Counted from the stretch's first letter, positions 17,113-38,490 are shown. The stretch: 44,427 bases of DNA from Candidatus Altiarchaeota archaeon (GCA_038891095.1 JAWAEV010000007.1:1-44427); one strand, 5' to 3'. A program made the numbers and translations. The notes: generated by a model not told the origin, from the sequence alone.

Positions 17113-17695
17113 TTAATATAATAAGGTGATAATTGTCAGCATATTTACTAAAATCATTTTACACTTGCTCTTCCAAATTCAAAGGAGTTCTCCCTACGTT
17201 TCAATAAGAAAATTTGAGGATTTCCTATAGGGCTCATAGTGCTGCCAATTGTTATTGCAAATGCCAAAGCAATTAAAAGAAAAGAGATTTTGGATTTATG
17301 TTATGTTTTTTTGCGAGAAGCAAAATTGCCGGGGTGCCTACAATGGCTAATGTGTCATTCATAAGAAGTGCTGAGGTAAAACCAATTATAAACAAAATGA
17401 GCAATAATAGCTGATTTGTGTTCTTAGCCTTTTTGAATATTTTATAAGTCAAGTATGACAGATAACCACTATCTTCAAGAGCAACCCCTATAAGGAACAT
17501 ACTAAACAAGAAAAATATCACCTCCAAATTTATTGATTCTATTGCATTTGTTATTGAAATTTGTCCTGTTACTAAAAACAGCAATTGCCCCAAGTAGCAT
17601 TATCTTCCAAATCTGCAATTTAATATCACCAATTTGCCTTATTGCAATAAGTAAAAAACCACAGACAGAACTAATATCGGAATGGGATATATCAT
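17113..17695 (-). pseudogene. Degraded ArsB/NhaD/SLC13-type anion transporter
   Basis: Fragments across frames: MIYPIPILVLSVVF / LLIAIRQIGDIKLQIWKIMLLGAIA / LVTGQIS...LMNDTLAIVGTP...NPK / LLIALAFAITIGSTMSPIGNPQ. At least three frameshifts; most of the C-terminal half is absent. The 3' boundary is approximate. Confidence 0.85.
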
Positions 17696-17974: not shown

Positions 17975-18826
17975 ATGGAAATGTTAGCATTTAATGAAAA
18001 TATCTTAGAATATGCATTAATAATTAACATAATAGCAGTTTTAATTTCAGTAGTTGCGGTAATTTATTGGGTTAAATTATACAAAAGACTTTATAAACAA
18101 GAACAGAAAGAAACTCGGGGGTGGGTATGGCTTTTTATTGGCGTTTTTAGCATTCTACTTTTCAATATTTCGAGCATTTATCTAATGTTTTTTTCAAATC
18201 CTTTTTATGAGCTACTCGGAACTATGGGCAGAACACTCATTGCAATTTCTCTAACCATTGGTGCTTATCTCCTCTATCTACCAATGAAGAAGGGGTTTGT
18301 TTATCGTTTTGTTCCAATAGAGCCTGTAATTGAGCATAGATCAGAAGAAAAGCCAAGGCATATACTTGAGAAAGGACAAACATATCTAATTGATGAGGAA
18401 AAACCTATAAAGAGCAATGAAATTTTTCTTGATATGATAAATCATGGCATAGCTGGTTTATACATAACAAGAAAAAATCCTGAAGAAGTTAGAAAAAATT
18501 ATAAACTAGAGAAAACTCCAATAATTTGGCTCACACATGAGAGAAGTTATAATGGATGTATTGATCCAAGGGATTTAGTGCTATTAAGTCATACAATAAA
18601 AGAATTTATAAAAAAAGCAGACGATGGTATAGTTCTAATTGATGGTGTAGAATACTTAATAATCCAAAATAGTTTTGTGGAAATTTTGAAACTTGTTCAA
18701 AATTTGAAGGATGTTGTCTCTTTGAGCAACTCAAGAATGTTGCTATCCATCGACTCTAAAGCAATTGACAATAGAGAATTTCATCTATTAAAGAAGGATA
18801 TGTCCTTCATAAAGGCGAATATATAG
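17975..18826 (+). CDS. Membrane protein (about 3 TM) with C-terminal DUF835 (inactive KaiC/RecA-like) domain
   Basis: Three hydrophobic segments, then YLIDEEKP, GLYITRKNP, PIIWLT, IDP.DL, IVLIDGVEYLIIQNSF..ILK....LKD. Confidence 0.85.
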   Translation: MEMLAFNENILEYALIINIIAVLISVVAVIYWVKLYKRLYKQEQKETRGWVWLFIGVFSILLFNISSIYLMFFSNPFYELLGTMGRTLIAISLTIGAYLLYLPMKKGFVYRFVPIEPVIEHRSEEKPRHILEKGQTYLIDEEKPIKSNEIFLDMINHGIAGLYITRKNPEEVRKNYKLEKTPIIWLTHERSYNGCIDPRDLVLLSHTIKEFIKKADDGIVLIDGVEYLIIQNSFVEILKLVQNLKDVVSLSNSRMLLSIDSKAIDNREFHLLKKDMSFIKANI

Positions 18827-18878
18827 CAGATAGATAAAATATCGATACACAATAGAATTTGAGCATGGTGTTATAAAA

Positions 18879-19610
18879 ATGAGAAGAAAAATTCCATCAG
18901 GAGTTCAGGGTTTAGATGAGTTAATAGGTGGTGGTTTTCCAGAGAGTTCAACTACTGTAATTTCTGGCCCACCTGGAATAGGAAAAAGCAGCTTGGCTAT
19001 GCAATTTGTTTACTCCGGAGTTAAAATTGATGAACCAGGAGTTTATATAACAATAGAAGATACAGTTGCTGATATTGAAGAATATTCTAATAGCTTTGGA
19101 TGGGATTTAAAAAAATATGAAGAAAAGGGAACATTAAGGATCTTAGGTAGAGAAATTTTTGAGAGAACCGATGTTGATTTAGGAGTTGACTTTGGAATAA
19201 TGCGAGATATACTAAGAGACATAAATGCAAAAAGAGTTGTACTTGATTCATTAACTTTGTTTAATTATCTTTTCAAGGATGAAATAACTCGAAGACTACA
19301 TTTGTTGCGTTTCCTTGAACTTATGAAAAAAGAGAGATGCACTTTACTTATGACTGCAGAGTTATCTGATACATTTCATCATATGAAATTTCAACAAGAG
19401 CATTTCTTAGCTGACGGACTTATCGTGCTTTTTTGGTCAAGGTACAAAGCTCATACAGAAAGATGCATATGGGTTGTCAAGATCAGGGGTGCGAAAATAA
19501 ATTCTGACATTAGACCAATGAAAATAACAAGTGAAGGAGTTGTAATTTATCCAAGGGAAGTACCTTTCACATTAACTAAAAAAACTGAAACCACTGAGGA
19601 AGTATATTAG
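18879..19610 (+). CDS. Single-domain KaiC/RAD55-like ATPase
   Basis: SGVQGLDELIGGGFP, Walker A GPPGIGKS, Walker B RVVLDS, ADGLI.L, VVKIRG. Confidence 0.93.
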   Translation: MRRKIPSGVQGLDELIGGGFPESSTTVISGPPGIGKSSLAMQFVYSGVKIDEPGVYITIEDTVADIEEYSNSFGWDLKKYEEKGTLRILGREIFERTDVDLGVDFGIMRDILRDINAKRVVLDSLTLFNYLFKDEITRRLHLLRFLELMKKERCTLLMTAELSDTFHHMKFQQEHFLADGLIVLFWSRYKAHTERCIWVVKIRGAKINSDIRPMKITSEGVVIYPREVPFTLTKKTETTEEVY

Positions 19611-19623
19611 AATTAAAATTAGA

Positions 19624-22557
19624 ATGAAAACTAACAAATTAAATGGAAAAATTTTAATGAGCATAGTTGCATTCGTCATAATTCTCCTTTGTTTATCAAA
19701 TTTTGCTCAGATAGAGGGCAATCTAATAATAAAACCTGAAAAAATTTTCGCAAGTAATGTCCCAGGGGGCATCTTTGAGTATCAGATTACATTAGAAAAT
19801 ACTCAAGAAAAAGAAATTACAGTAAGAGTCCAAGGAATAGGTGGGAATTTAAGTGGTGTGCTACCAACTGTTAATAAAGTCTGGACTAAAATAAAGCCAA
19901 AAAGCATATCAAATTTGGAAATTAAAGGGGCAATAAGAAAGGATGCTCCTGAAGGTTTATATTTAGGAGAAGTTCTCATTGAGAGTGAGGGCATAAGTTA
20001 TAGCATACCTGTAAATTTAGAAATTGCAAAGGTTACTGAAGAAATTTCTCTAAATTTAAAGATAGAGCCAGTAAAAAAAGAAATTAAGCCAGGAGAAACT
20101 CTAAATATTAAGACAACAATTGAAAAAAAAGGTAGAAAAAAGATAGATGGCGAACTTGAAATTTCTCTATTATCATTGGATAATTCTTTGATTGCAGTCA
20201 AAAAATTGAGTTTTAGTGAAAGTACTTCAACATTGATAGAATTTCCAATAACTTCAGACACACTTGAAGGAAGATACAAAATTTTAGGGAATGTCTATTA
20301 TAACGAAGCTGGACTTAAAAAACTTGCTGCTTCTGATACTGTGGAAATTTCAGTTCATAAACCATGGACAGAAATCTTCACACCGATATTAAGTCAAATA
20401 ACTCCAAGCAAAATTGCACTTTTCCTTTTCATTTTACTTGTGCTGTGGTTGTTTTCATTTTTATTTTTCTATTATAGAAAAGAGAAACTTGGAAGAAGAC
20501 GCTACCTTTACTCAATACTAAAGAAAATAAAATTTGAGACTCTGCCAAAATCTGGCTTAAGATCTGGATTTATTGGTAGAATTGCTGAAACAAATATAAA
20601 GGCATTTGTTAATTTAGATGAGTTAAAAAAACATACTCTTGTTGCAGGTGCAACTGGATCTGGAAAAACAATTGCTGCGCAAATTCTTGTTGAGGAAGCC
20701 TTAATAAAGGGTGCTTCTGCAGTTGTTTTTGATCCAACAGCTCAGTGGACAGGATTTCTCAAAAAGAACACAGACCCAAAAATACTTCAGCTTTATAGCT
20801 ATTTTGGGATGAGTGTCAAACAAGCGAGAAACTTCAAGGGTAATATTCATATAGTTAATGACCCATATGAAAAAATTAAAATAAAAGACCTTATTAATCC
20901 AGGGGAAATAACAATTTTTGTCTTAAATAAATTAAATTCAACCGAACTTGAAAATTTCATAGTGAATACAATTGATACGATCTATAGTGAAAATTTAGAA
21001 GAAAGTCAAGAGCTAAAATTACTTCTAATCTATGATGAAATTCATAGAATTTTACCAAAGTTCGGTGGCACCGGAAAGGGATTAACTTGGATTGAGAGAG
21101 GTGTTAGGGAATTTAGAAAATGGGGCGTTGGAATAATATTAATTTCACAAGTTCTTTCAGATTTTGTAGGAGAAATAAAGGCAAACATTGGAACAGAAAT
21201 TCAGATGAGGGCAAGGTATGAAGGTGACTTAAATAGAATTAAGCTAAAATATGGTGAAGATTTCCATAGGTGTGTAGTTAAGGCAGCAATTGGTGAGGGC
21301 ATTATACAAAATTCTGAATATAATAGAGGGATTCCATACTTCATTAAATTTAGGCCACCACTTCATAGCATTCAAGGATTGGATAATGAAACCTTAGAAA
21401 AATATGATCAATACACTCAGAATTTAGATTCATTTACAGAGAAAATAAACGAGATTAAAAAGTTAGGTATTGATACTTTTGATATTGAAATAGAGCTTAA
21501 ATTAGCTTCAGATAACCTAAAAGAAGGAATGTTTGGAGTCGTTGATCTTTACTTTGATACTCTAAATTCAAGAATATCAAATCTCATTAAAAGGCTTGAG
21601 GAAGGAAAAATTAAAGAAGAGGAAAGAGCAATAATTTCCGAGTGGGATGAAAAAAAATCAGAAATTCTAAAAGAATATGAGGAAGAATTACGAAACAGAA
21701 TAAAATCACAGAAAGAAGAACTTGAAAAGAGAAGTGAGATCATAAAGAAGGAGCATGAAGAGAAATTAAGGGAGATAGAAAACAAAAGAATTAAACTCAT
21801 TGAAGCGGAGAGAGAAAAAGCTAAGGAGGTGGAAGAGGAAAAAGCTAGAATTGAGAAAAAAGCCCATGTGTTAGAACTTTTAAGTAGATATGAAAGGCTA
21901 AGAATTCTTCTGCGGAGTGATATCTATGACAGAGAGAAAGAAAAATTGAATGCTCAGAAGCAAGAGTTAATTGAGTTGAAAGAGCCTTTATTAAGACAAA
22001 TTCAAAGTGAAAGAATGAAAAGCGAGGAGGAGAGAGAAAGAATAATTGAGGATATGAAGAAGGAAGAGGAGGAGATAACACAGAGCATAAATAGAATTGA
22101 GAAAATATGGGATGAAATACAAGAAGATGAAAAAAGAATTTTAACTAAGGATAAAGAGTTATATGAAGCAGAGTGGAAATTAATCGAAAAAATAAAGAAT
22201 GAAATAAGAGAAGAAATTGAAAAGAGGAAGAACATAAGAGAGCAACTAATGAAAGAGCGAGAAAAATATCGTCAAGAAGAATTGAAATTGCATGAGTTAG
22301 AGCTTATGGATGAATATGAAAAAAAGAGAGAGGAGAAGAAGATAGAGGAGAGGAAGAAAAGAGAAGAAATAAAAAAGGAGAAGGATAGACTTTATGAAGA
22401 GCTCAGAAAAATTAGAGATAAATGGCTGAGGATTTTGGATAGAAGCAAAGACATAAGTGAAGGAGAAGAAAAAATAAAAAAACTAAAAGAAGAACTTAAG
22501 AACAAGGAATATGAAGATGCGCAGAAGATGGATTCTATGTCAGAGGAGAATAACTGA
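19624..22557 (+). CDS. Membrane-anchored HerA/FtsK/VirB4-superfamily (DUF87-like) ATPase with exported beta-rich domains and C-terminal coiled coil
   Basis: Signal/TM at the N-terminus, about 230 aa beta-rich region, TM near aa 263-284, Walker A AGATGSGKT near aa 341, VFDPTAQW, Walker B LLIYDEIHR, REFRKWG...ISQ, then a long E/K/R-rich tail. Confidence 0.85.
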   Translation: MKTNKLNGKILMSIVAFVIILLCLSNFAQIEGNLIIKPEKIFASNVPGGIFEYQITLENTQEKEITVRVQGIGGNLSGVLPTVNKVWTKIKPKSISNLEIKGAIRKDAPEGLYLGEVLIESEGISYSIPVNLEIAKVTEEISLNLKIEPVKKEIKPGETLNIKTTIEKKGRKKIDGELEISLLSLDNSLIAVKKLSFSESTSTLIEFPITSDTLEGRYKILGNVYYNEAGLKKLAASDTVEISVHKPWTEIFTPILSQITPSKIALFLFILLVLWLFSFLFFYYRKEKLGRRRYLYSILKKIKFETLPKSGLRSGFIGRIAETNIKAFVNLDELKKHTLVAGATGSGKTIAAQILVEEALIKGASAVVFDPTAQWTGFLKKNTDPKILQLYSYFGMSVKQARNFKGNIHIVNDPYEKIKIKDLINPGEITIFVLNKLNSTELENFIVNTIDTIYSENLEESQELKLLLIYDEIHRILPKFGGTGKGLTWIERGVREFRKWGVGIILISQVLSDFVGEIKANIGTEIQMRARYEGDLNRIKLKYGEDFHRCVVKAAIGEGIIQNSEYNRGIPYFIKFRPPLHSIQGLDNETLEKYDQYTQNLDSFTEKINEIKKLGIDTFDIEIELKLASDNLKEGMFGVVDLYFDTLNSRISNLIKRLEEGKIKEEERAIISEWDEKKSEILKEYEEELRNRIKSQKEELEKRSEIIKKEHEEKLREIENKRIKLIEAEREKAKEVEEEKARIEKKAHVLELLSRYERLRILLRSDIYDREKEKLNAQKQELIELKEPLLRQIQSERMKSEEERERIIEDMKKEEEEITQSINRIEKIWDEIQEDEKRILTKDKELYEAEWKLIEKIKNEIREEIEKRKNIREQLMKEREKYRQEELKLHELELMDEYEKKREEKKIEERKKREEIKKEKDRLYEELRKIRDKWLRILDRSKDISEGEEKIKKLKEELKNKEYEDAQKMDSMSEENN

Positions 22558-22620
22558 TGATGAGTGGATTTTATAATTGTTAAAGATAAACAAAATAAAA
22601 AATTAGTCTATTGAGATAAA

Positions 22621-24117
22621 ATGGGGCTTCTATCAAAGGCAAAAGAAATTGAAAAAACAAAAGAAATAGACAAAGAAAAAATAGATCTTTTTGATGAATG
22701 GAATAAGCTCAATGAACAGAAGGAGAAAATAGAAATTCAAAAAAGTGAGCGAGACAAACAGATGAAATTGAGAGAACTTAGCTTACTCTCCTTAGAACAA
22801 AAGCTAAACTTAAAATCAAAAGAGCTTGAAGGCATAGAAAAAGAGAGAGAAAAACTTGAAGAAGAAAAACAAAAACTAACCGAAGAAACACTAAAACTTA
22901 ATGAAGAAAAAGCAGAGTTAAATAAAAGGGTTGAAGAAGAAACAATAGAAGAGGAGGAGCTTAGAGCTAAGAGAGCAGAAGTTGAAAATAAAGAGAATGA
23001 GCTTAAGAAGAAAGAAAAGGAGCTTTTAGAAAGAGAAAAACAGATTTCAGAACTTGAAAAAGAAAAGCAGGAATTAGAAAAGGAAAAAGAAAAACTTAAA
23101 TCAGAATGGGAAAAACTAAGAAAGGAAAAAGAAGAAATTGAAGCTGAAAGAAAAATCAAGGAAGATGAGCTAACAAAAAAAGAAAGAGAGTTAAAGCTTA
23201 GAGAGGAAGAACTGCTAAAAAAGGAACAGGCTCTAATTGAAAAAGAAAAAGAAGAAGAAGCAAAACTAAAAGAAATTGAAACTGAGAGGAAAATCCTAAA
23301 TAGGGAATTAGCAATATTAAAGAGAAAGAAGGAAGAACTTGAAGAAGAGGCAAAGAAATATTCAGAGGAGAGCAAAAAGAGAATGCAAGAGTTATCAGAG
23401 CAAGAAGAGGTAATAAAAAGGGCGTGGAATAAATTAATTGAGGCTAAAGAGGAGCAGAAAATTTTAGTTGAGAAGGAGAGAGAGCAAATGGAAAATGAAT
23501 TAAATAGACAAAGAGATGAACTCTTAAAAAAAGCAGAAGAGTTAAAAAAACAGGAGGAAGAGGAAAAAGAGAGATTAAGAAAGCAAGAGGAAGAACACAA
23601 GAAGAATTTAGAAATTCTTGAAAGTAAAGAAAAAGAGATTCTTGATAAAATTTCAGAACTTGAGAAAAAGTTAGAATTTGATAAAAAGGTAGAGACAGAA
23701 GAAATTGCAGAAATAGAAAGAATTCGGGCAGAGAGAAAAAAAATAGAGGAGGAAATTAAAGAGAGAAGATTAGAACTTGAAAGAAAACTTGAAGAAGAAA
23801 AAAATACTCTTGAATCTGAAATTGAAAATTTAAAGAAGCAAAGAGATGCCATAAGAGCAGAATTGCAGCCATTAGAGATGGAAATCCTGAAAAGAAAAAT
23901 TGAAATTCTTGAAGAGCAAAAATCTGAAATAGAACAGAAGCTTAGAATAGAAAGAGAAAATATGGAGAAATTAACTGAAAAGGAAGGCGGTGGTTGGGAA
24001 ATTTTTGAAGAAATGGAAAAAGAGTGGAAAAAAATTGAAGATCTAAGAGCCGAGAGAGATAGATTAGATAAAGAGTTAGATGAGATAAAAAATAGATTAA
24101 AAATAGCGCGAGTTTGA
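22621..24117 (+). CDS. Long coiled-coil protein (498 aa)
   Basis: Almost entirely E/K/R/L heptad-like sequence; no globular domain recognised. Confidence 0.85.
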   Translation: MGLLSKAKEIEKTKEIDKEKIDLFDEWNKLNEQKEKIEIQKSERDKQMKLRELSLLSLEQKLNLKSKELEGIEKEREKLEEEKQKLTEETLKLNEEKAELNKRVEEETIEEEELRAKRAEVENKENELKKKEKELLEREKQISELEKEKQELEKEKEKLKSEWEKLRKEKEEIEAERKIKEDELTKKERELKLREEELLKKEQALIEKEKEEEAKLKEIETERKILNRELAILKRKKEELEEEAKKYSEESKKRMQELSEQEEVIKRAWNKLIEAKEEQKILVEKEREQMENELNRQRDELLKKAEELKKQEEEEKERLRKQEEEHKKNLEILESKEKEILDKISELEKKLEFDKKVETEEIAEIERIRAERKKIEEEIKERRLELERKLEEEKNTLESEIENLKKQRDAIRAELQPLEMEILKRKIEILEEQKSEIEQKLRIERENMEKLTEKEGGGWEIFEEMEKEWKKIEDLRAERDRLDKELDEIKNRLKIARV

Positions 24118-24118
24118 A

Positions 24119-24892
24119 TTAAATAAATTTAATCTCTAAATTTGTTTTTTCTAATAACTCGAGAATTCTTTTCTTTTCTTTACCCATACCTTTCTTTTCA
24201 ATTAATGCATATTCTGGTGATGGAATTGTTTTTTTAATCATTTCATGGATAATTTTCCCATCGACATTACAGAGGTTATATTTTGCACAGATATGGCCCA
24301 AGGCAAAATTTTCAATTTGAGAGAATTTTCTACAATAATGCCCTCCACCAAAACCTATTGCAACATCTTTTTTTTCTGGTTTTTCTGTTAATGTTTCGTA
24401 GATTGTATCTGCGATAATTTCACAAAGATTTAAATTTTTCCATTCATTTAAGCTACTGCCAACTTCTATGAACATAATTGGAAAATCCAACTGAGTTGGT
24501 CCATGATGTGTTGCTTCAAGGCATATCTCACATTCAACATGAGTTGAATTTTTCTTTAAATTTTTAAGTGCCGTACTGATATATAATGCTGGTGAAATCC
24601 CAAGTTCTTTGCTATTGCCACCTAATTCTGCAATTGAGAAATTTCCAGTTGAGTGCAAAGTCAAGCAAGGCATTTTAGATTCTGATGAATGCTTAGATGC
24701 CACAATGCAAACTTCTGGTTTTAAATTAAATTCTGTGAGATACATAATTTCAGAATCAATTTGCATTAGTAGCAAATCATCTTTTCTATGCAACTTCTCA
24801 TTTACCTCATTAAATTTGTATTTATCAACTAAAATTTTTCCAATGTTCTCACCAGCTATATCACTCCTTGAAAAAATTACAAGCTTAAACAT
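24119..24892 (-). CDS. dtdA: D-aminoacyl-tRNA deacylase (archaeal DTD2)
   Basis: D.AG.NI, SKHSS, LTLHSTGN, EATHHGPT, FIEVGS, GFGGGHY, GHICAKY. Confidence 0.93.
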   Translation of the reverse strand: MFKLVIFSRSDIAGENIGKILVDKYKFNEVNEKLHRKDDLLLMQIDSEIMYLTEFNLKPEVCIVASKHSSESKMPCLTLHSTGNFSIAELGGNSKELGISPALYISTALKNLKKNSTHVECEICLEATHHGPTQLDFPIMFIEVGSSLNEWKNLNLCEIIADTIYETLTEKPEKKDVAIGFGGGHYCRKFSQIENFALGHICAKYNLCNVDGKIIHEMIKKTIPSPEYALIEKKGMGKEKKRILELLEKTNLEIKFI

Positions 24893-24959
24893 TTTTATAC
24901 TTAATTTTAGAATAGTTTAATAAAACAAGTATGAAACATCAAATAATAAATAAATAGAA

Positions 24960-25562
24960 ATGGAACTACATCCCAAAGAACTGGTTAATGATCTAATTAC
25001 TTTATTAAATCCAAAAACAACTGAAAAATTTTTTAGAAATGTCCGAATCAAGCCAGTAGATGAAATGCTAACTTACTTGCTTTTTTTTGGTTTATTCACC
25101 TTTTTTGGTTATTTCTTAAGGCATTTATTATTTGTTGATAAGGTACCTCCATTTACAGCATTTTCAATAGCATTGCCCTACTATTTAATTGGTATAGTTC
25201 CTTCAGGAGTTTTCTCGATATTTGTAATGAGCTATACTCTATACTTATTCGGAGAAAAAATAGTCAAAAGGACTGTAAGTCGTGAAGAGGCACTAACAGT
25301 AATTGGTTATTCCTCAATTCCAGAGTTGATTGGCGGATTTTTTATGATAATAAGTGAAACTCATGTTCTTTATCTTTTGTTGACAATGTATAGTGTTTTA
25401 CTTCTCTATATTGGTATTAAATCTAGATTTGGATTTAGATTCTCAGTTAGGTGTTTTGCATTCGTATTGATATCTGGTTTTATATTCTCTATGATTCTCT
25501 TCAGGATCGTTCTCGCAATTTTTACAGCTTTGAATATACCTAGTGCGTATTATGGTTTATAA
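24960..25562 (+). CDS. Yip1-like multi-pass membrane protein
   Basis: LLNPKTTEKFF N-terminus, about 5 TM helices, AL.VIGYSSIP.LIGG and LY.GIK..F patterns typical of Yip1 domains. Confidence 0.7.
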   Translation: MELHPKELVNDLITLLNPKTTEKFFRNVRIKPVDEMLTYLLFFGLFTFFGYFLRHLLFVDKVPPFTAFSIALPYYLIGIVPSGVFSIFVMSYTLYLFGEKIVKRTVSREEALTVIGYSSIPELIGGFFMIISETHVLYLLLTMYSVLLLYIGIKSRFGFRFSVRCFAFVLISGFIFSMILFRIVLAIFTALNIPSAYYGL

Positions 25563-25568
25563 ATAAAG

Positions 25569-26618
25569 ATGAAAATTCCAGGATTTTTCAAAAAGGAGAA
25601 AAAAGAACAAGAAGAGATTGACATGCTAATACAGCAAAATATAGCTGGAGAAGGAGAGAAGGTTGATGAACCACAAGAGGAGACGCCTCCAACAGAGTTT
25701 TCAGGACAAATAGATGAGCTAAGAAAAATGCGAATGGATGTTGATAAGCTAATAGCAGAATTTGAAGTTGTAAAACAGATAAACAAAGTAAATGAGGAAA
25801 GATTTCAAAGAATAAGCGAAGAGATTGGTGAGTTAAGAAGAGCTAATGTTGAGAGAGAAAGAGACATAAATAAAATAATGGTGAAAGCAGAGAAGGCAGC
25901 ACAACTTGTCGAGCAAGTACAACCAGAAAAACTAATGATGGAAGTTGAAAAAGAGAATGCAAAAATTCAAACAATAGAAGCAAAAGAAAAAGCAGATAAG
26001 TCTCTTATAGATTACATAACAAAAGAGATAAAAGATATTAGAGCGACATTGGAAACTTTTCGAGGAGTGGAGTCTTTAATAGAACTTAACGAAGAAGTAA
26101 AAAGAGAACTGATGAATATGAAAAAATTACAGACAGTTATAAGTCAGCATGCAGATAAGGTCGAGAATATCTTCGTAAAAACTCAAAAAACATTTAGTGA
26201 TCTAATGAAACTATCTCAGGAATTTAAAGTTCTTGAAAATAGGTTTGATGATTTAATGAAAGACTCTGAAAATTTAAAAGCAAATTTTGAGAGCGTTGCA
26301 AAGAAAGAAGATTTAAATTCATTACAAAAGGAATTTAATGATAAACTCAGTTCTATTGAAAAAATTAAAGAAGATTTAGAAAAGAAGAAAAAAGAGCTTG
26401 ATGAGATACTCCCTGAAATAAGGGAATCATTAAAGGAATCAAAAAAACTTGAAGAAATTATGAAGAGAAGAGTAACTGAGATTGATGATGAACTTACAGA
26501 GCTTTCAAAGATTGAGCAGAAAAGATATGTAACAGAAGAAAAATTTAACAAAGAACTTGGAGATTTCTTTAAGAGTATACTTGAGAAAATTGAAGCATTA
26601 GAGCAAAAGATAAAATGA
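25569..26618 (+). CDS. Coiled-coil protein with N-terminal GFFKK motif
   Basis: 349 aa, heptad-rich, with a distinctive ERFQRISEEIGELR...VQPEKLMME core; co-oriented and tightly packed with its neighbours. Confidence 0.8.
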   Translation: MKIPGFFKKEKKEQEEIDMLIQQNIAGEGEKVDEPQEETPPTEFSGQIDELRKMRMDVDKLIAEFEVVKQINKVNEERFQRISEEIGELRRANVERERDINKIMVKAEKAAQLVEQVQPEKLMMEVEKENAKIQTIEAKEKADKSLIDYITKEIKDIRATLETFRGVESLIELNEEVKRELMNMKKLQTVISQHADKVENIFVKTQKTFSDLMKLSQEFKVLENRFDDLMKDSENLKANFESVAKKEDLNSLQKEFNDKLSSIEKIKEDLEKKKKELDEILPEIRESLKESKKLEEIMKRRVTEIDDELTELSKIEQKRYVTEEKFNKELGDFFKSILEKIEALEQKIK

Positions 26619-27223
26619 GAAAAATTGAATTTTCTTTTAGTAAACACATAAGTTTAGTACTTCTCGTTATTGGTTTGTTAGTAGTGTTATATTCTCTATA
26701 TAAACTTTTTCATGTGATGAGTATTGATACAGTAGCTTTACTCGCGTTAGGTGTGATATTGATGGTTATTGGAGTTCTCTTTAAATATACTGAAGAAGTT
26801 GAGGAAGTTGAAGAAAAACTTGAGGAACAGCCAAAAATTCAGGAGATGAGCTATTGGCGTATGCAAGATTTAGAGTATAGATTAAAAAAAATTGAAAGAG
26901 AAAAAGAAAATATAGCGGCAGGGACTAAAATTAAAAAAGAAATTTCAAATGAGGAATTTAACAAGTTCAAAGCAATGGTTGACGAACTTTTAGAAAAGTT
27001 AAGAGAAGAAGATATTAAAAATTTCCGCAATAGTGAAGATTTCAAAATTTATGAGGAGGTGCTCTCAAATGAGAATGCTAATGATGAAAAGAAAAGAGAG
27101 TTTGTTTTTATAGTTGATAAACTGCTTGAAAAATTACCAATTGAACAGGTAAATGAATTTATAAAAGATAAGGAGAGATATGCATTTTATCAGAAAATAC
27201 TTGACTGGGCTAAAAATGAGTGA
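26615..27223 (+). CDS. 2-TM membrane protein with duplicated C-terminal helical motif
   Basis: Two N-terminal TM helices; VDELLEKLREEDIKNF..SEDFKIYEEVL and VDKLLEKLPIEQVNEF...ERYAFYQKIL. Confidence 0.8.
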   Translation: MRKIEFSFSKHISLVLLVIGLLVVLYSLYKLFHVMSIDTVALLALGVILMVIGVLFKYTEEVEEVEEKLEEQPKIQEMSYWRMQDLEYRLKKIEREKENIAAGTKIKKEISNEEFNKFKAMVDELLEKLREEDIKNFRNSEDFKIYEEVLSNENANDEKKREFVFIVDKLLEKLPIEQVNEFIKDKERYAFYQKILDWAKNE

Positions 27224-31137: not shown

Positions 31138-31741
<604 letters not shown>

Positions 31742-31862
31742 CTTGGTAATATTCTTATAATGCTATAATATTATGGACGCATCTACATTTATGAAATGGG
31801 TCTCAGAGACAAATGAAAAAATTTCTTCAATTAAAAATAAAGAAAATGAGGGTGATAAGAAA

Positions 31863-32363
31863 ATGAATCAGATGGAAGTAAAAATTGGAATTGTTGTTTC
31901 TGAATTTAACTATGAAATTACATATGCAATGTTAGAATTAGCAAAAGAACATGCAAAATTTCTTGGAGCAGAAGTTGTTAAAATTTTAAAAGTTCCTGGA
32001 GTTTTTGACATACCATTAGCTCTGAAAAAAATTTTAGAAGACAGCAACATAGATGCTGCTGTTGCTTTAGGCGCTGTAATTGAAGGCCAGACACAGCATG
32101 ATGAACTTATTGCTCAGCAAGCTTCAAGAAAAATTATTGACTTAAGCATAGAGTATGGTAAACCTGTTGGCTTAGGAATTTCAGGTCCAGGTATGTCTCA
32201 TTTAGAAGCGCATGAGAGAGTTGAATATGCTAAGAATGCTGTTGAAGCAGCAGTAAAAATGGTAAAAAGACTTAGAGAATTTTCTGAAGGTGCAAACTCA
32301 AGCGCATTGCACTACTCACCAGAAGAAGAAAGTGCTTTTGCTGGGCTTAGAATGATGGGTTAA
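31863..32363 (+). CDS. ribH: 6,7-dimethyl-8-ribityllumazine synthase
   Basis: GIVVSEFNYEIT, VPGVFDIP, LGAVIEG.T.HDE, KPV.LGISGPG. Start moved to ATG 31863, after GAGGGTGA. Confidence 0.94.
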   Translation: MNQMEVKIGIVVSEFNYEITYAMLELAKEHAKFLGAEVVKILKVPGVFDIPLALKKILEDSNIDAAVALGAVIEGQTQHDELIAQQASRKIIDLSIEYGKPVGLGISGPGMSHLEAHERVEYAKNAVEAAVKMVKRLREFSEGANSSALHYSPEEESAFAGLRMMG

Positions 32364-37845: not shown

Positions 37846-38490
37846 CTAAATTTGCTTTACTGGTGGTTTTGGAATTATCACTTTTATTTTAACTGAATCA
37901 GAAGATGTTTTTCCTGATGCATCAACTACTGTTAATGTTATTGTATACTCTCCTCTTTCTAATTTTGCTGAAAAACTATCCATTGAATAAGCCTTTGAAA
38001 CTTTTCTTGAAATTCCTGATGGTGTCGAACTCCAAGAATATTCAAAGTCCGGAGTACCTTGATAGACATAACCCAAAAATTGTATGTCTAAGTCTTCTTC
38101 AAGTTCGCTACCATCACCAGGATAGATTATCTCAACTTTCATTTCAGAGGAAGCATTACTATATGGTAGAGTAGAATCATTTTTCCATATATCTGTGCAG
38201 GAACAGTTAAATTGTTTTACATCAGTACTAATACTACTGAGAAGGTAATTAATAACTGCTACTGATAAAATAACAACAAATAAGCCTATAATACCATAAA
38301 TTATCCTTTTTTTTGCCTCATTTTTTTGCATTGAAGACTCTGAACTAATCAATTTAATTCCAGCGAGTGCTATTACAATTGATAAAATAGCAGCAGATAT
38401 AAACAAAATCAGGCATAAAATATTGCAAATAACCCAAGACCATTTTGCTCCTAATATTTCTCCTTCAAGTTGGGCAGAGACTACTAACAT
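37846..38490 (-). CDS. TrbC/VirB2-like (T4SS-type) pilin hairpin fused to a PKD/Ig-like domain
   Basis: TM-AGIKLISSE....KNEAKKRIIYGIIGL-TM hairpin, then II.P.DG, YSWSS and G.YTITLTV.D.SG...SDSV.I.V. Confidence 0.7.
   Translation of the reverse strand: MLVVSAQLEGEILGAKWSWVICNILCLILFISAAILSIVIALAGIKLISSESSMQKNEAKKRIIYGIIGLFVVILSVAVINYLLSSISTDVKQFNCSCTDIWKNDSTLPYSNASSEMKVEIIYPGDGSELEEDLDIQFLGYVYQGTPDFEYSWSSTPSGISRKVSKAYSMDSFSAKLERGEYTITLTVVDASGKTSSDSVKIKVIIPKPPVKQI

Follow-up and report, generated by a model that had tools for sequence, protein, structure and literature searches.

A 44,427-nucleotide stretch of DNA from a Candidatus Altiarchaeota archaeon (GCA_038891095.1, JAWAEV010000007.1:1-44427), called the window here and numbered from its first letter, carries seven genes on the plus strand (g1 to g7) with a convergent dtdA gene among them (Table 1). 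They encode a DUF835 protein (g1), a single-domain KaiC-like ATPase (g2), a 977-amino-acid (977-aa) surface protein with a cytoplasmic ATPase (g3), a K/E-rich helical protein (g4), a small hydrophobic protein (g5), an all-helical protein of 349 aa (g6, or cc349), and a protein with two transmembrane (TM) segments and a repeat (g7). A first-pass annotation had grouped these genes as an undescribed membrane system, and its seven open reading frames (ORFs) and antisense dtdA were recovered at exactly the same coordinates. Gaps of 52, 13, and 63 nucleotides (nt) separate g1 to g4, and 6 nt separate g5 from g6; the first 4 nt of g7 are the last 4 of g6, and 44 nt are shared between g7 and an AMMECR1 gene. 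Because dtdA stands convergently between g4 and g5, the genes fall into two co-directional units, g1-g4 and g5-g7. The analysis described here identifies the region as a real, conserved module around a known family of proteins, the SPEARE-type ATPases of DPANN archaea, with cc349 and a set of lineage-specific regulators as newly recognized partners.

The genome that carries the window (G000; 0.96 Mb, 93.65% complete) was compared with 40 related genomes, 41 in all. A pattern scan of genome contigs confirmed at least 549 relatives of g3 among 599 candidate stretches, and the 80 best loci were used for neighborhood counts (L-numbers designate genome stretches, both in these loci and in the compared genomes). 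These 80 loci came from Altiarchaeota/Altiarchaeales, Micrarchaeota, Woesearchaeota, Pacearchaeota, Aenigmatarchaeota, Nanohaloarchaea, and Nanoarchaeota, at approximately 33 to 53% identity.

The architecture of g3 agrees with the exported domain, TM helix, and HerA-type ATPase first assigned to it. A signal-peptide-like segment (residues 10 to 28) precedes two Ig-like beta-sandwich ectodomains (approximately residues 35 to 245) and a TM segment (259 to 277); on the cytoplasmic side follow a P-loop ATPase of the HerA/VirB4 fold (approximately 291 to 585), a helical domain (588 to 659), and a K/E-rich tail (661 to 977; 26% E and 18% K). The ATPase matched Pfam DUF87 (1.2e-12, 48.8 bits against a cut-off of 23.2), and the P-loop also matched TrwB_AAD_bind (4.9e-6). 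BLASTP aligned g3 to RLG14629.1 over 650 aa with 40% identity (E 8e-132); the aligned part runs from the last ectodomain through the TM helix and the ATPase to the helical domain beyond. RLG14629.1 is an accession given as a SPEARE match in the accessible part of Hamm 2019 (PMC6642349), and an ORF of one of our nanohaloarchaeal loci (L095) is identical to it letter for letter. Judged by sequence, g3 is a compact member of the SPEARE, or giant DPANN surface-protein, family.

As described in the same part of Hamm 2019 (PMC6642349), SPEARE proteins lie largely outside the cytoplasm and have a single TM helix close to the C terminus and a conserved cytoplasmic region that was taken for a type III restriction enzyme; similar sequences were noted in Woesearchaeota, Aenigmarchaeota, Micrarchaeota, and Altiarchaeales. 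Thus, a system with relatives in Altiarchaeales had already been reported, and the word "undescribed" no longer applies to g3. Pfam ResIII and DEAD matched both g3 and a second copy of it in G000, which would explain the restriction-enzyme reading. In Reva/La Cono 2023 (PMC10266531), to the extent that its text was accessible, the same region was re-annotated as a VirB4/TraG-like ATPase with a coiled coil after it, and a different downstream gene, for a second VirB4/TraG-type ATPase, was noted in two nanohaloarchaea. The domain order of g3 (signal peptide, beta ectodomains, one TM, P-loop ATPase, and C-terminal coiled coil) is that of SPEARE as given in those accounts.

Unlike the giant forms, g3 has only 977 residues and two small ectodomains, without a laminin-G or protease-like region; no Pfam domain of either kind, and no other adhesion domain, was matched on it. 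Part of its tail is split off as g4, and it is linked to genes for KaiC, DUF835, and a 2-TM protein and, among sister genera, to one for a NurA-like protein. Among relatives, the ATPase in many loci forms the C-terminal part of a very large ORF (at least 2,000 aa in 37 of 86 ORFs and at least 3,000 aa in 25 of 86), and these lengths are lower bounds, since 44 of the 86 ATPase ORFs are cut by the start of the locus. Ectodomains range from approximately 250 to more than 3,000 aa and are highly variable in content. Short versions of 655 and 717 aa appear in the accessible part of Hamm 2019 (PMC6642349); giant size is therefore not strictly defining for SPEARE.

To place the ATPase among known folds, residues 100 to 660 of g3 were modeled from a 71-sequence alignment (predicted local distance difference test [pLDDT], 90.5; predicted template modeling score [pTM], 0.70). 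The model consists of beta strands at 111 to 244, one long helix at 261 to 300, a RecA-like alpha/beta core at 314 to 579, and three helices at 588 to 659. The best Foldseek matches were all HerA proteins (8xau, 3e-12; 4d2i, 4.5e-11; and the HerA-NurA complex 9x1m, 5.6e-11), and a profile search of the PDB with g3 returned HerA at 1e-6. In structural comparison, Sulfolobus solfataricus HerA (4d2i_A) came first, with a Z score of 25.9 and a root mean square deviation of 2.8 Å over 247 aa, followed by Thermococcus kodakarensis HerA in its NurA complex (9x1m; Z 24.7), bacterial defense HerA (8xaw, Z 24.6; 8wiv, Z 22.6), DndH-C (Z 24.1), VirB4 (4ag6; Z 24.1), TrwB (Z 20.1), and FtsK and EssC (Z 17.9 each). 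On the strength of the model, the ATPase domain belongs with HerA and VirB4 within the FtsK-HerA superfamily, HerA being marginally first.

The Walker A motif (GxTGxGK) and the Walker B D-E pair were invariant in 71/71 sequences, as were several Arg, Gln, and Asn positions. Together with the nearest folds, these invariant motifs make an active ring-forming ATPase the natural reading of g3; the ring itself we infer. Models of particular families, in contrast, were far from satisfied by g3: it scored 16.7 bits against a cut-off of 800 for HerA_Thermprot (NF040937), 19.5 against 800 for NF042943, 28.8 against 600 for CedD (NF053655, over the P-loop region only), and 15 against 567 for TraC-F-type (NCBIfam); TraD was likewise far below its cut-off, and AAA_10 reached 21.7 bits, also below cut-off.

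These comparisons set g3 both within and apart from the known members of its superfamily. HerA is the best structural match to the ATPase core, and, as in HerA-NurA systems, a NurA-family gene comes after the orthologous ATPase gene in four loci (L013, L014, L015, and L049). Unlike HerA, g3 is membrane anchored with an ectodomain, carries a TM helix in place of the N-terminal barrel, has no Mre11/Rad50 context in the window, and has no NurA gene beside it. With VirB4, TrwB, FtsK, and EssC it shares the superfamily fold, and TrwB, FtsK, and EssC are also tethered by N-terminal TM segments; however, no partner genes of type IV or type VII secretion systems (T4SS or T7SS) adjoin g3. Its CedD score likewise separates it from Ced DNA import.

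Strong relatives of g3 (E values of 1e-93 to 1e-236) were found in 20 of the 41 genomes, many of which carried more than one. A quick LG+G4 tree of the ATPase (90 rows) largely tracked lineages, placing 26 Altiarchaeota rows on a single side (SH-aLRT 95), a pattern suggestive of predominantly vertical inheritance. In G000, contig C13 holds the second copy, a paralog of 955 aa that is 47% identical to g3. Upstream of this paralog on the same strand lie ORFs of 151, 824, 143, 88, and 722 aa that matched no Pfam family; three of these ORF families recur beside the ATPase of another genome (G001, locus L027), where KaiC comes next. In-frame stops interrupt some ATPase relatives (four TGA and two TAA in one on G038:C32, and one in L045:935-2596), suggesting that these are decaying paralogs in some genomes.

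Next, the neighbors of the ATPase gene were compared across the 80 loci. Homologues of g6, sought with a profile built from 10 Altiarchaeota sequences, were present in 60 of the 80 loci and across DPANN phyla. The cc349 gene lay on the same strand and no more than 150 nt downstream of the ATPase gene in 42 loci, 151 to 1,100 nt downstream on the same strand in 11, and further downstream in 3; it was directly upstream in 3 loci and on the opposite strand in 1. No cc349 was found in the remaining loci, 7 of which had less than 1 kb of sequence downstream and 13 of which had 1 kb or more. In the nanohaloarchaeal loci, cc349 follows the ATPase in L055, L085, L095, L100, L109, and L112 and not in L071. 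In an all-against-all clustering of the 669 ORFs of the 80 loci, only the ATPase (80 loci) and cc349 (59 loci) formed widely shared families; the next cluster, of surface proteins, spanned 14 loci.

The same association was seen among the related genomes. A g6 homologue adjoins the ATPase gene in eight of them (G003, G006, G013, G015, G020, G026, G037, and G038), and in G014 it lies a few kilobases from the ATPase, with the entire window order kept, including dtdA and g5. Fifteen of the 20 genomes with the ATPase have cc349, compared to none of the 21 without it, a co-occurrence that is to be read as a pattern and not as a statistical test, since the 41 genomes are related and incomplete. The profile matched g6 alone in all of G000 and missed the K/E-rich g4 and g3 tail; it is thus specific to g6 there and does not report generic coiled-coil noise. 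From these results, cc349 is a regular neighbor and partner of SPEARE-type ATPases across DPANN archaea.

No described family accounts for cc349. No Pfam family covers it, its members matching scattered coiled-coil families of which none took more than 6 of 30. A profile search of the PDB gave no meaningful match (chemoreceptor, myosin, and designed coiled coils being noise), Foldseek returned no PDB fold match to its model at an E value of 0.001 or better, and an Atlas search with cc349 found only unnamed DPANN clusters. Among 1.84 billion entries, the profile retrieved 422 representatives at E≤1e-30, 864 at E≤1e-10, and 1,452 at E≤1e-3. The model (pLDDT, 80.7; pTM, 0.29) has long helices at 50 to 116, 119 to 240, 247 to 317, and 323 to 348 after a disordered acidic linker. 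An N-terminal head, hydrophobic and then basic, is present in 95 of 111 members, the median net charge of the linker is -5, and the conserved core spans approximately residues 55 to 245.

The gene that follows g6 encodes, as first described, a 2-TM repeat protein. TM segments at 11 to 29 and 37 to 55 of g7 precede a duplicated cytoplasmic helical repeat, with an internal repeat score of 65 (shuffles: mean, 31; standard deviation, 6.7; maximum, 59). Full-length g7 with the duplicated repeat had only 4 matches; a 2-TM homologue of its N-terminal half, of approximately 110 aa, stands directly after cc349 in five relatives (L015, L023, L024, L026, and L032) and in 5 of the 80 loci, none of the latter from another named DPANN phylum. 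The g7 product is a 2-TM protein specific to its lineage and coupled to g6.

The composition of g4 (75.5% E/K/R/D/Q/L, with no Pfam family) and the all-helical model of g6 are consistent with their description as coiled coils, a label that rests on composition, SMC-type noise matches, and predicted long helices. Among all G000 ORFs, the motif W[ED].[FILM]..[ML]E.[EQ]W..[MI][DE] is found once, in g4 (approximately residues 459 to 485; nt 23995-24075); its other occurrences are confined to the tails of the DUF835- and KaiC-linked long-tail ATPases, each of which has two, and g3 retains only a degenerate first copy. Residues 365 to 486 of g4 match the end of the tail encoded by the L015 ATPase gene. 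That g3 and g4 are one gene split by a single stop was considered and rejected: g3 ends in TGA TGA TGA, a fourth stop precedes the start of g4, and g4 has a start of its own 63 nt on. Given these stops, the separate start, and the unique tail motif, g4 is read as a detached copy of the ATPase tail and not as part of a broken gene.

Upstream of g3, the first two genes were as first assigned. The g1 product matched DUF835 (PF05763, 4e-39, 134 bits against a cut-off of 33.1), has hydrophobic segments at 15 to 33 and 53 to 71, and is predicted to be a membrane-anchored regulator or sensor, its gene lying upstream of that for KaiC; it is the sole DUF835 protein found in G000. DUF835 is tabulated as an inactivated KaiC in the accessible part of Galperin 2018. 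An hhalign comparison of the DUF835 and KaiC alignments gave a probability of 3.9% (E 0.011), which neither supports nor contradicts that label. The g2 product matched KaiC (PF06745, 4.6e-54, 183.7 bits against 26.6) and was below the NCBIfam equivalog cut-offs (KaiC_arch_3, 145 against 249). Its Walker A residues G30, P32, G33, G35, and K36 and the D123-S124 pair were invariant in 9/9 aligned homologues.

Orthologues of g2, 62 to 67% identical, occupy the same position in four relatives, and the order DUF835-KaiC-ATPase is kept in L013, L014, L015, and L030 (genomes G007, G009, G014, and G018, from two other genera). Loci L033 to L036 show this order too; they are probably the same assemblies as those genomes and were counted once. 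A second arrangement, ATPase-(V4R)-KaiC-cc349-2TM, was found in G013, G015, and G020 and in L065, L093, and L110, with a KaiC only 25 to 27% identical to g2. The recruitment of two different KaiC types to the same module argues for a real functional link. A V4R protein of approximately 135 aa (PF02830, 1.1e-9) was observed between the short-form ATPase and the second-type KaiC in some Altiarchaeales loci (L024 and L026 in Table 1). Overall, KaiC occurred in 12 of the 80 loci (9 on the same strand next to the module and 3 on the other strand at a distance), DUF835 in 5, and V4R in 2, all from Altiarchaeota. The genes for KaiC, DUF835, the 2-TM protein, V4R, and the NurA-like protein are Altiarchaeota-only additions to the module.

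The pairing of HerA with the nuclease NurA is the textbook context of the HerA fold. None of the 35 other window ORFs scanned matched an archaellin, PilB/C, Mre11, NurA, or Ced family at E≤1e-5, in keeping with the absence of such genes first noted for the window. For NurA, this absence is a feature of the window: in sister genera with the DUF835/KaiC-linked long-tail ATPase, a gene for a NurA-like protein of 324 to 339 aa follows the orthologous ATPase gene, directly in L013, L014, and L015 and 2.3 kb downstream in L049. The Pfam scan covered the L013 member of the four, which matched NurA (PF09376, 32 bits against a cut-off of 21). The motifs VDSS, LLDGS, and EDS were invariant in 4/4 NurA-like sequences, and the hhalign match between the NurA-like proteins and the NurA of G000 was weak (probability 27%, E 6.6e-4). 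Mainly because a NurA-like nuclease gene follows the orthologous ATPase gene in sister genera, a ground that is indirect for G000, we tentatively prefer DNA as the substrate, at somewhat less than an even chance. Of the functions first proposed for the cluster, this neighbor points to DNA more than to membrane remodeling.

For most genes, then, the neighborhood and phyletic comparison supported the first-pass proposal of a conserved neighborhood centered on a membrane-anchored HerA-type ATPase. KaiC and DUF835 were linked to that ATPase in several Altiarchaeota genera, and the coiled-coil partners belonged with it, g6 as its commonest neighbor across DPANN archaea and g4 as the carrier of an ATPase-family tail motif. 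Co-occurrence across genomes held for g6, and the cluster mapped in part onto the described SPEARE system. Conserved neighborhoods place the grouping of g1 to g4, g6, and g7 beyond chance; they did not do so for g5 and dtdA.

The g5 product had been called Yip1-like and counted as a member of the cluster. It has four hydrophobic segments, but no Pfam family matched g5 even at an E value of 10, and only its orthologue (L015:3148-4047) reached Yip1 (PF04893) at all, with 23.7 bits against a cut-off of 28.6; the label was not confirmed on g5 itself. Homologues of g5 were found in 17 of the 41 genomes, all of one family; 5 of these genomes have neither the ATPase nor cc349, and in 5 genomes that have the module, g5 is on another contig. 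Since it occurs without the ATPase and sits apart from the module elsewhere, g5 was rejected as a component, and g5, dtdA, and AMMECR1 are treated as bystanders.

A mobile-element origin of the cluster was also rejected: no tRNA genes were found in the window, no integrase was found among the neighbors, the GC content is low (0.28 to 0.34) with an even profile, and the neighbors are housekeeping genes (an FttA-type beta-CASP nuclease, a proteasome beta subunit, TFB, glycogen genes, and thymidylate kinase). Just upstream of g1, a 106-aa ORF matches only positions 20 to 121 of the 336-position CitMHS model (1.6e-19) and looks like a gene fragment. Further along the window lie tandem DMRL-synthase (lumazine synthase) genes, the first with a much weaker match (2.3e-18 against 3e-39), and, 11 kb from the cluster, a 214-aa ORF with a T4SS_pilin domain (9.5e-8) and a PKD-like domain, flanked by radical-SAM and HAD hydrolase genes.

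TABLE 1 Coordinates of the genes of the cluster and of other features (window positions unless a locus or contig is named; L114 is G000:C2:49000-59000)
Feature	Location	Strand	Description
g1	17975-18826	+	DUF835 protein, 283 aa
g2	18879-19610	+	KaiC-like ATPase, single domain, 243 aa
g3	19624-22557	+	Compact SPEARE-family protein, 977 aa
g4	22621-24117	+	K/E-rich helical protein, 498 aa
dtdA	24119-24892	-	PF04414, 1.8e-60
g5	24960-25562	+	Labeled Yip1-like in the first-pass annotation; 4 hydrophobic segments
g6 (cc349)	25569-26618	+	All-helical protein, 349 aa
g7	26615-27223	+	2-TM protein with cytoplasmic repeat, 202 aa
CitMHS ORF	17273-17593	-	106 aa
DMRL-synthase genes	31193-31741, 31773-32363	+	Tandem pair
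T4SS_pilin-like ORF	37846-38490	-	214 aa
Paralog of g3 (contig C13)	L018 5032-7899	-	SPEARE-type ATPase, 955 aa
ORFs upstream of paralog	L018 8009-13525	-	151, 824, 143, 88, and 722 aa
NurA-like	L013:6788-7807	+	PF09376 match
NurA-like	L014:2609-3601	-	Directly after long-tail ATPase
NurA-like	L015:7978-8952	-	Directly after long-tail ATPase
NurA-like	L049:14169-15182	+	2.3 kb downstream of long-tail ATPase
NurA of G000	C1:284295-285317		Between radical-SAM gene and PEP-utilizing enzyme
V4R protein	L024:8417-8821	-	Approximately 135 aa
V4R protein	L026:9685-10095	-	Approximately 135 aa
Pilin	L114 6904-7314	-	TrbC/VirB2 type, 136 aa
PrgI	L114 5868-6764	-	PrgI-family protein, 298 aa
VirB4-like ATPase	L114 3548-5887	-	TraG-P-loop/AAA_10, 779 aa

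The explanation that we consider best, and to which we give an even chance of being right, is that the region is the Altiarchaeota version of a DPANN SPEARE-type envelope-spanning ATPase module, a ring translocase under the control of KaiC. The ATPase would form a hexameric ring against the membrane, like HerA, VirB4, TrwB, and FtsK, held there by six TM helices. The ectodomains would reach another cell or a surface, and on engagement the ring would move a polymer at or through the membrane, threading DNA or another polymer. The N-terminal head and conserved core of g6, with g7, g4, and the tail of g3, may serve the ring as a helical scaffold or adaptor in the cytoplasm, and KaiC and DUF835 may gate its activity.

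The motor of the archaellum (ArlI-ArlH-ArlX/ArlCDE) similarly combines a hexameric membrane-associated ATPase with a single-domain KaiC-like protein and coiled-coil scaffolds, either anchored in the membrane or soluble. The likeness in module layout is one of analogy only. The g2 product matches ArlH (8.2e-13) and FlaH (3.8e-15) weakly, far below their cut-offs; g3 belongs to the HerA/FtsK superfamily, unlike the secretion ATPases of the PilB/ArlI type, and the cluster has no pilin, archaellin, or ArlJ gene.

Several observations weigh against a KaiC-controlled ring translocase of this kind. DUF835 was over its cut-off in 37 of the 41 genomes, in multiple copies and whether or not the ATPase was present; being so common in the order, it is a general signaling part and not a marker of the module. 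Among loci with at least 1 kb of downstream sequence or with cc349 present, 13 of 73 had no cc349 match, and these included the closest DUF835-KaiC-ATPase loci, L033 and L036, in which cc349 is on another contig; in the window itself, g6 sits 3 kb from g3, beyond the convergent gene. No NurA-like gene was found beside g3 in G000, whose sole NurA gene is isolated on contig C1. Within the order, the module has a scattered distribution (20 of 41 genomes, and just 2 of 13 in family f7), and a single TM helix per subunit is insufficient alone for a channel.

The strongest of the rivals, in our view still unlikely, is that the module is an adhesion or signaling receptor without translocation, the ring and helical proteins serving as an anchor or mechanochemical hub on the KaiC network. 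Ectodomains that vary so greatly in length and content, from approximately 250 to more than 3,000 aa, are typical of adhesins, and the one TM helix per subunit, the extensive helical partners, and the signaling-type character of KaiC, DUF835, and V4R would fit a receptor. However, the catalytic and ring-type motifs are invariant in 71/71 sequences and the nearest folds are all polymer translocases. The signaling partners, moreover, are confined to Altiarchaeota loci (12, 5, and 2 of the 80 for KaiC, DUF835, and V4R), which marks signaling as an add-on and not the core of the module.

A T4SS-like "straw," in which a VirB4/TraG-type motor and the surface protein deliver protein effectors into a contacted cell, has been proposed for giant nanohaloarchaeal members of the family in the accessible part of Reva/La Cono 2023 (PMC10266531). 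We regard it as decidedly unlikely for this locus. In its favor, VirB4 matched the g3 model with a Z score within 2 units of HerA (24.1), TrwB reached a Z of 20, and TrwB_AAD_bind matched g3; G000 also has a pilin gene, a PrgI gene, and a TraG-P-loop ATPase gene on contig C2, and the window has its T4SS_pilin-like ORF. This trio lies apart from the cluster, though, and the true VirB4-like gene of G000, which comes with PrgI and pilin, is a different protein on another contig. In addition, g3 lacks the VirB4 N-terminal domain and is below the cut-offs for AAA_10, TraC, and TraD; no VirB6, VirB8, or VirB3 gene was seen next to the ATPase in any of the 80 loci, cc349 being the one neighbor that recurs widely there; and a NurA-like neighbor suits DNA better than protein effectors.

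Antiviral defense, with a membrane-anchored HerA-type ATPase, a NurA-like nuclease, and KaiC regulators in the manner of Sir2-HerA or DUF4297-HerA, is quite improbable. It draws on the bacterial defense HerA proteins among the top structural matches (8xaw, Z 24.6; 8wiv, Z 22.6), on weak PADLOC matches to HerA (4.6e-12) and mad8 (1.4e-11), and on a patchy presence with several paralogs per genome. Yet no partner gene had a PADLOC match, the ATPase tree tracks lineages, and the window has housekeeping neighbors, even GC, and no integrase or tRNA. We know of no HerA defense system with a counterpart of the giant adhesin-like ectodomains or of the cc349 partner, which also counts against defense. 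A chance juxtaposition of seven unrelated genes, suggested by the neighborly behavior of g5, dtdA, and AMMECR1 and by the convergent gene that splits the cluster into two units, is very improbable as a whole and is largely refuted by conservation for g1 to g4, g6, and g7, given the orders kept for g1-g2-g3 (4 relatives), g6-g7 (5 relatives), and ATPase-cc349 (60 of 80 loci), the whole window order retained in G014, and the unique motif that g4 shares with ATPase tails.

We found no mention of the cc349 neighbor, of g4 as a detached tail, or of the KaiC, DUF835, 2-TM, and NurA-like links in the accessible parts of the SPEARE or DPANN HerA/DUF87/VirB4 literature; some of these links may already be listed in the supplements of Hamm 2019 or in the archaeal KaiC-hub survey. 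Through its link to KaiC, the locus represents a new and specific output for the proposed archaeal KaiC signaling network.

In the accessible literature, SPEARE-type proteins are the most conspicuous candidates for DPANN host-interaction factors, and their mechanism is disputed, having been read as a restriction enzyme, a T4SS straw, and an invasion tool. The giant forms are hard to study, and this locus supplies a 977-aa version with a high-confidence model. It adds a conserved partner family, regulators, and a nuclease that hints at the substrate, which lead to concrete binding, ATPase, and nuclease assays. A wider hypothesis, which we hold to be somewhat unlikely, is that the SPEARE-type ATPase and cc349 form an ancient, DPANN-wide class of envelope-spanning HerA-like translocases, distinct from T4SS, Ced, FtsK, and T7SS, that takes up or hands over DNA at cell contacts, with NurA-like coupling and KaiC/DUF835 gating in Altiarchaeota. 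If true, such a DPANN-wide DNA translocase would be a machine for nucleic acid scavenging or exchange and would help to explain how archaea with small genomes live off their neighbors.

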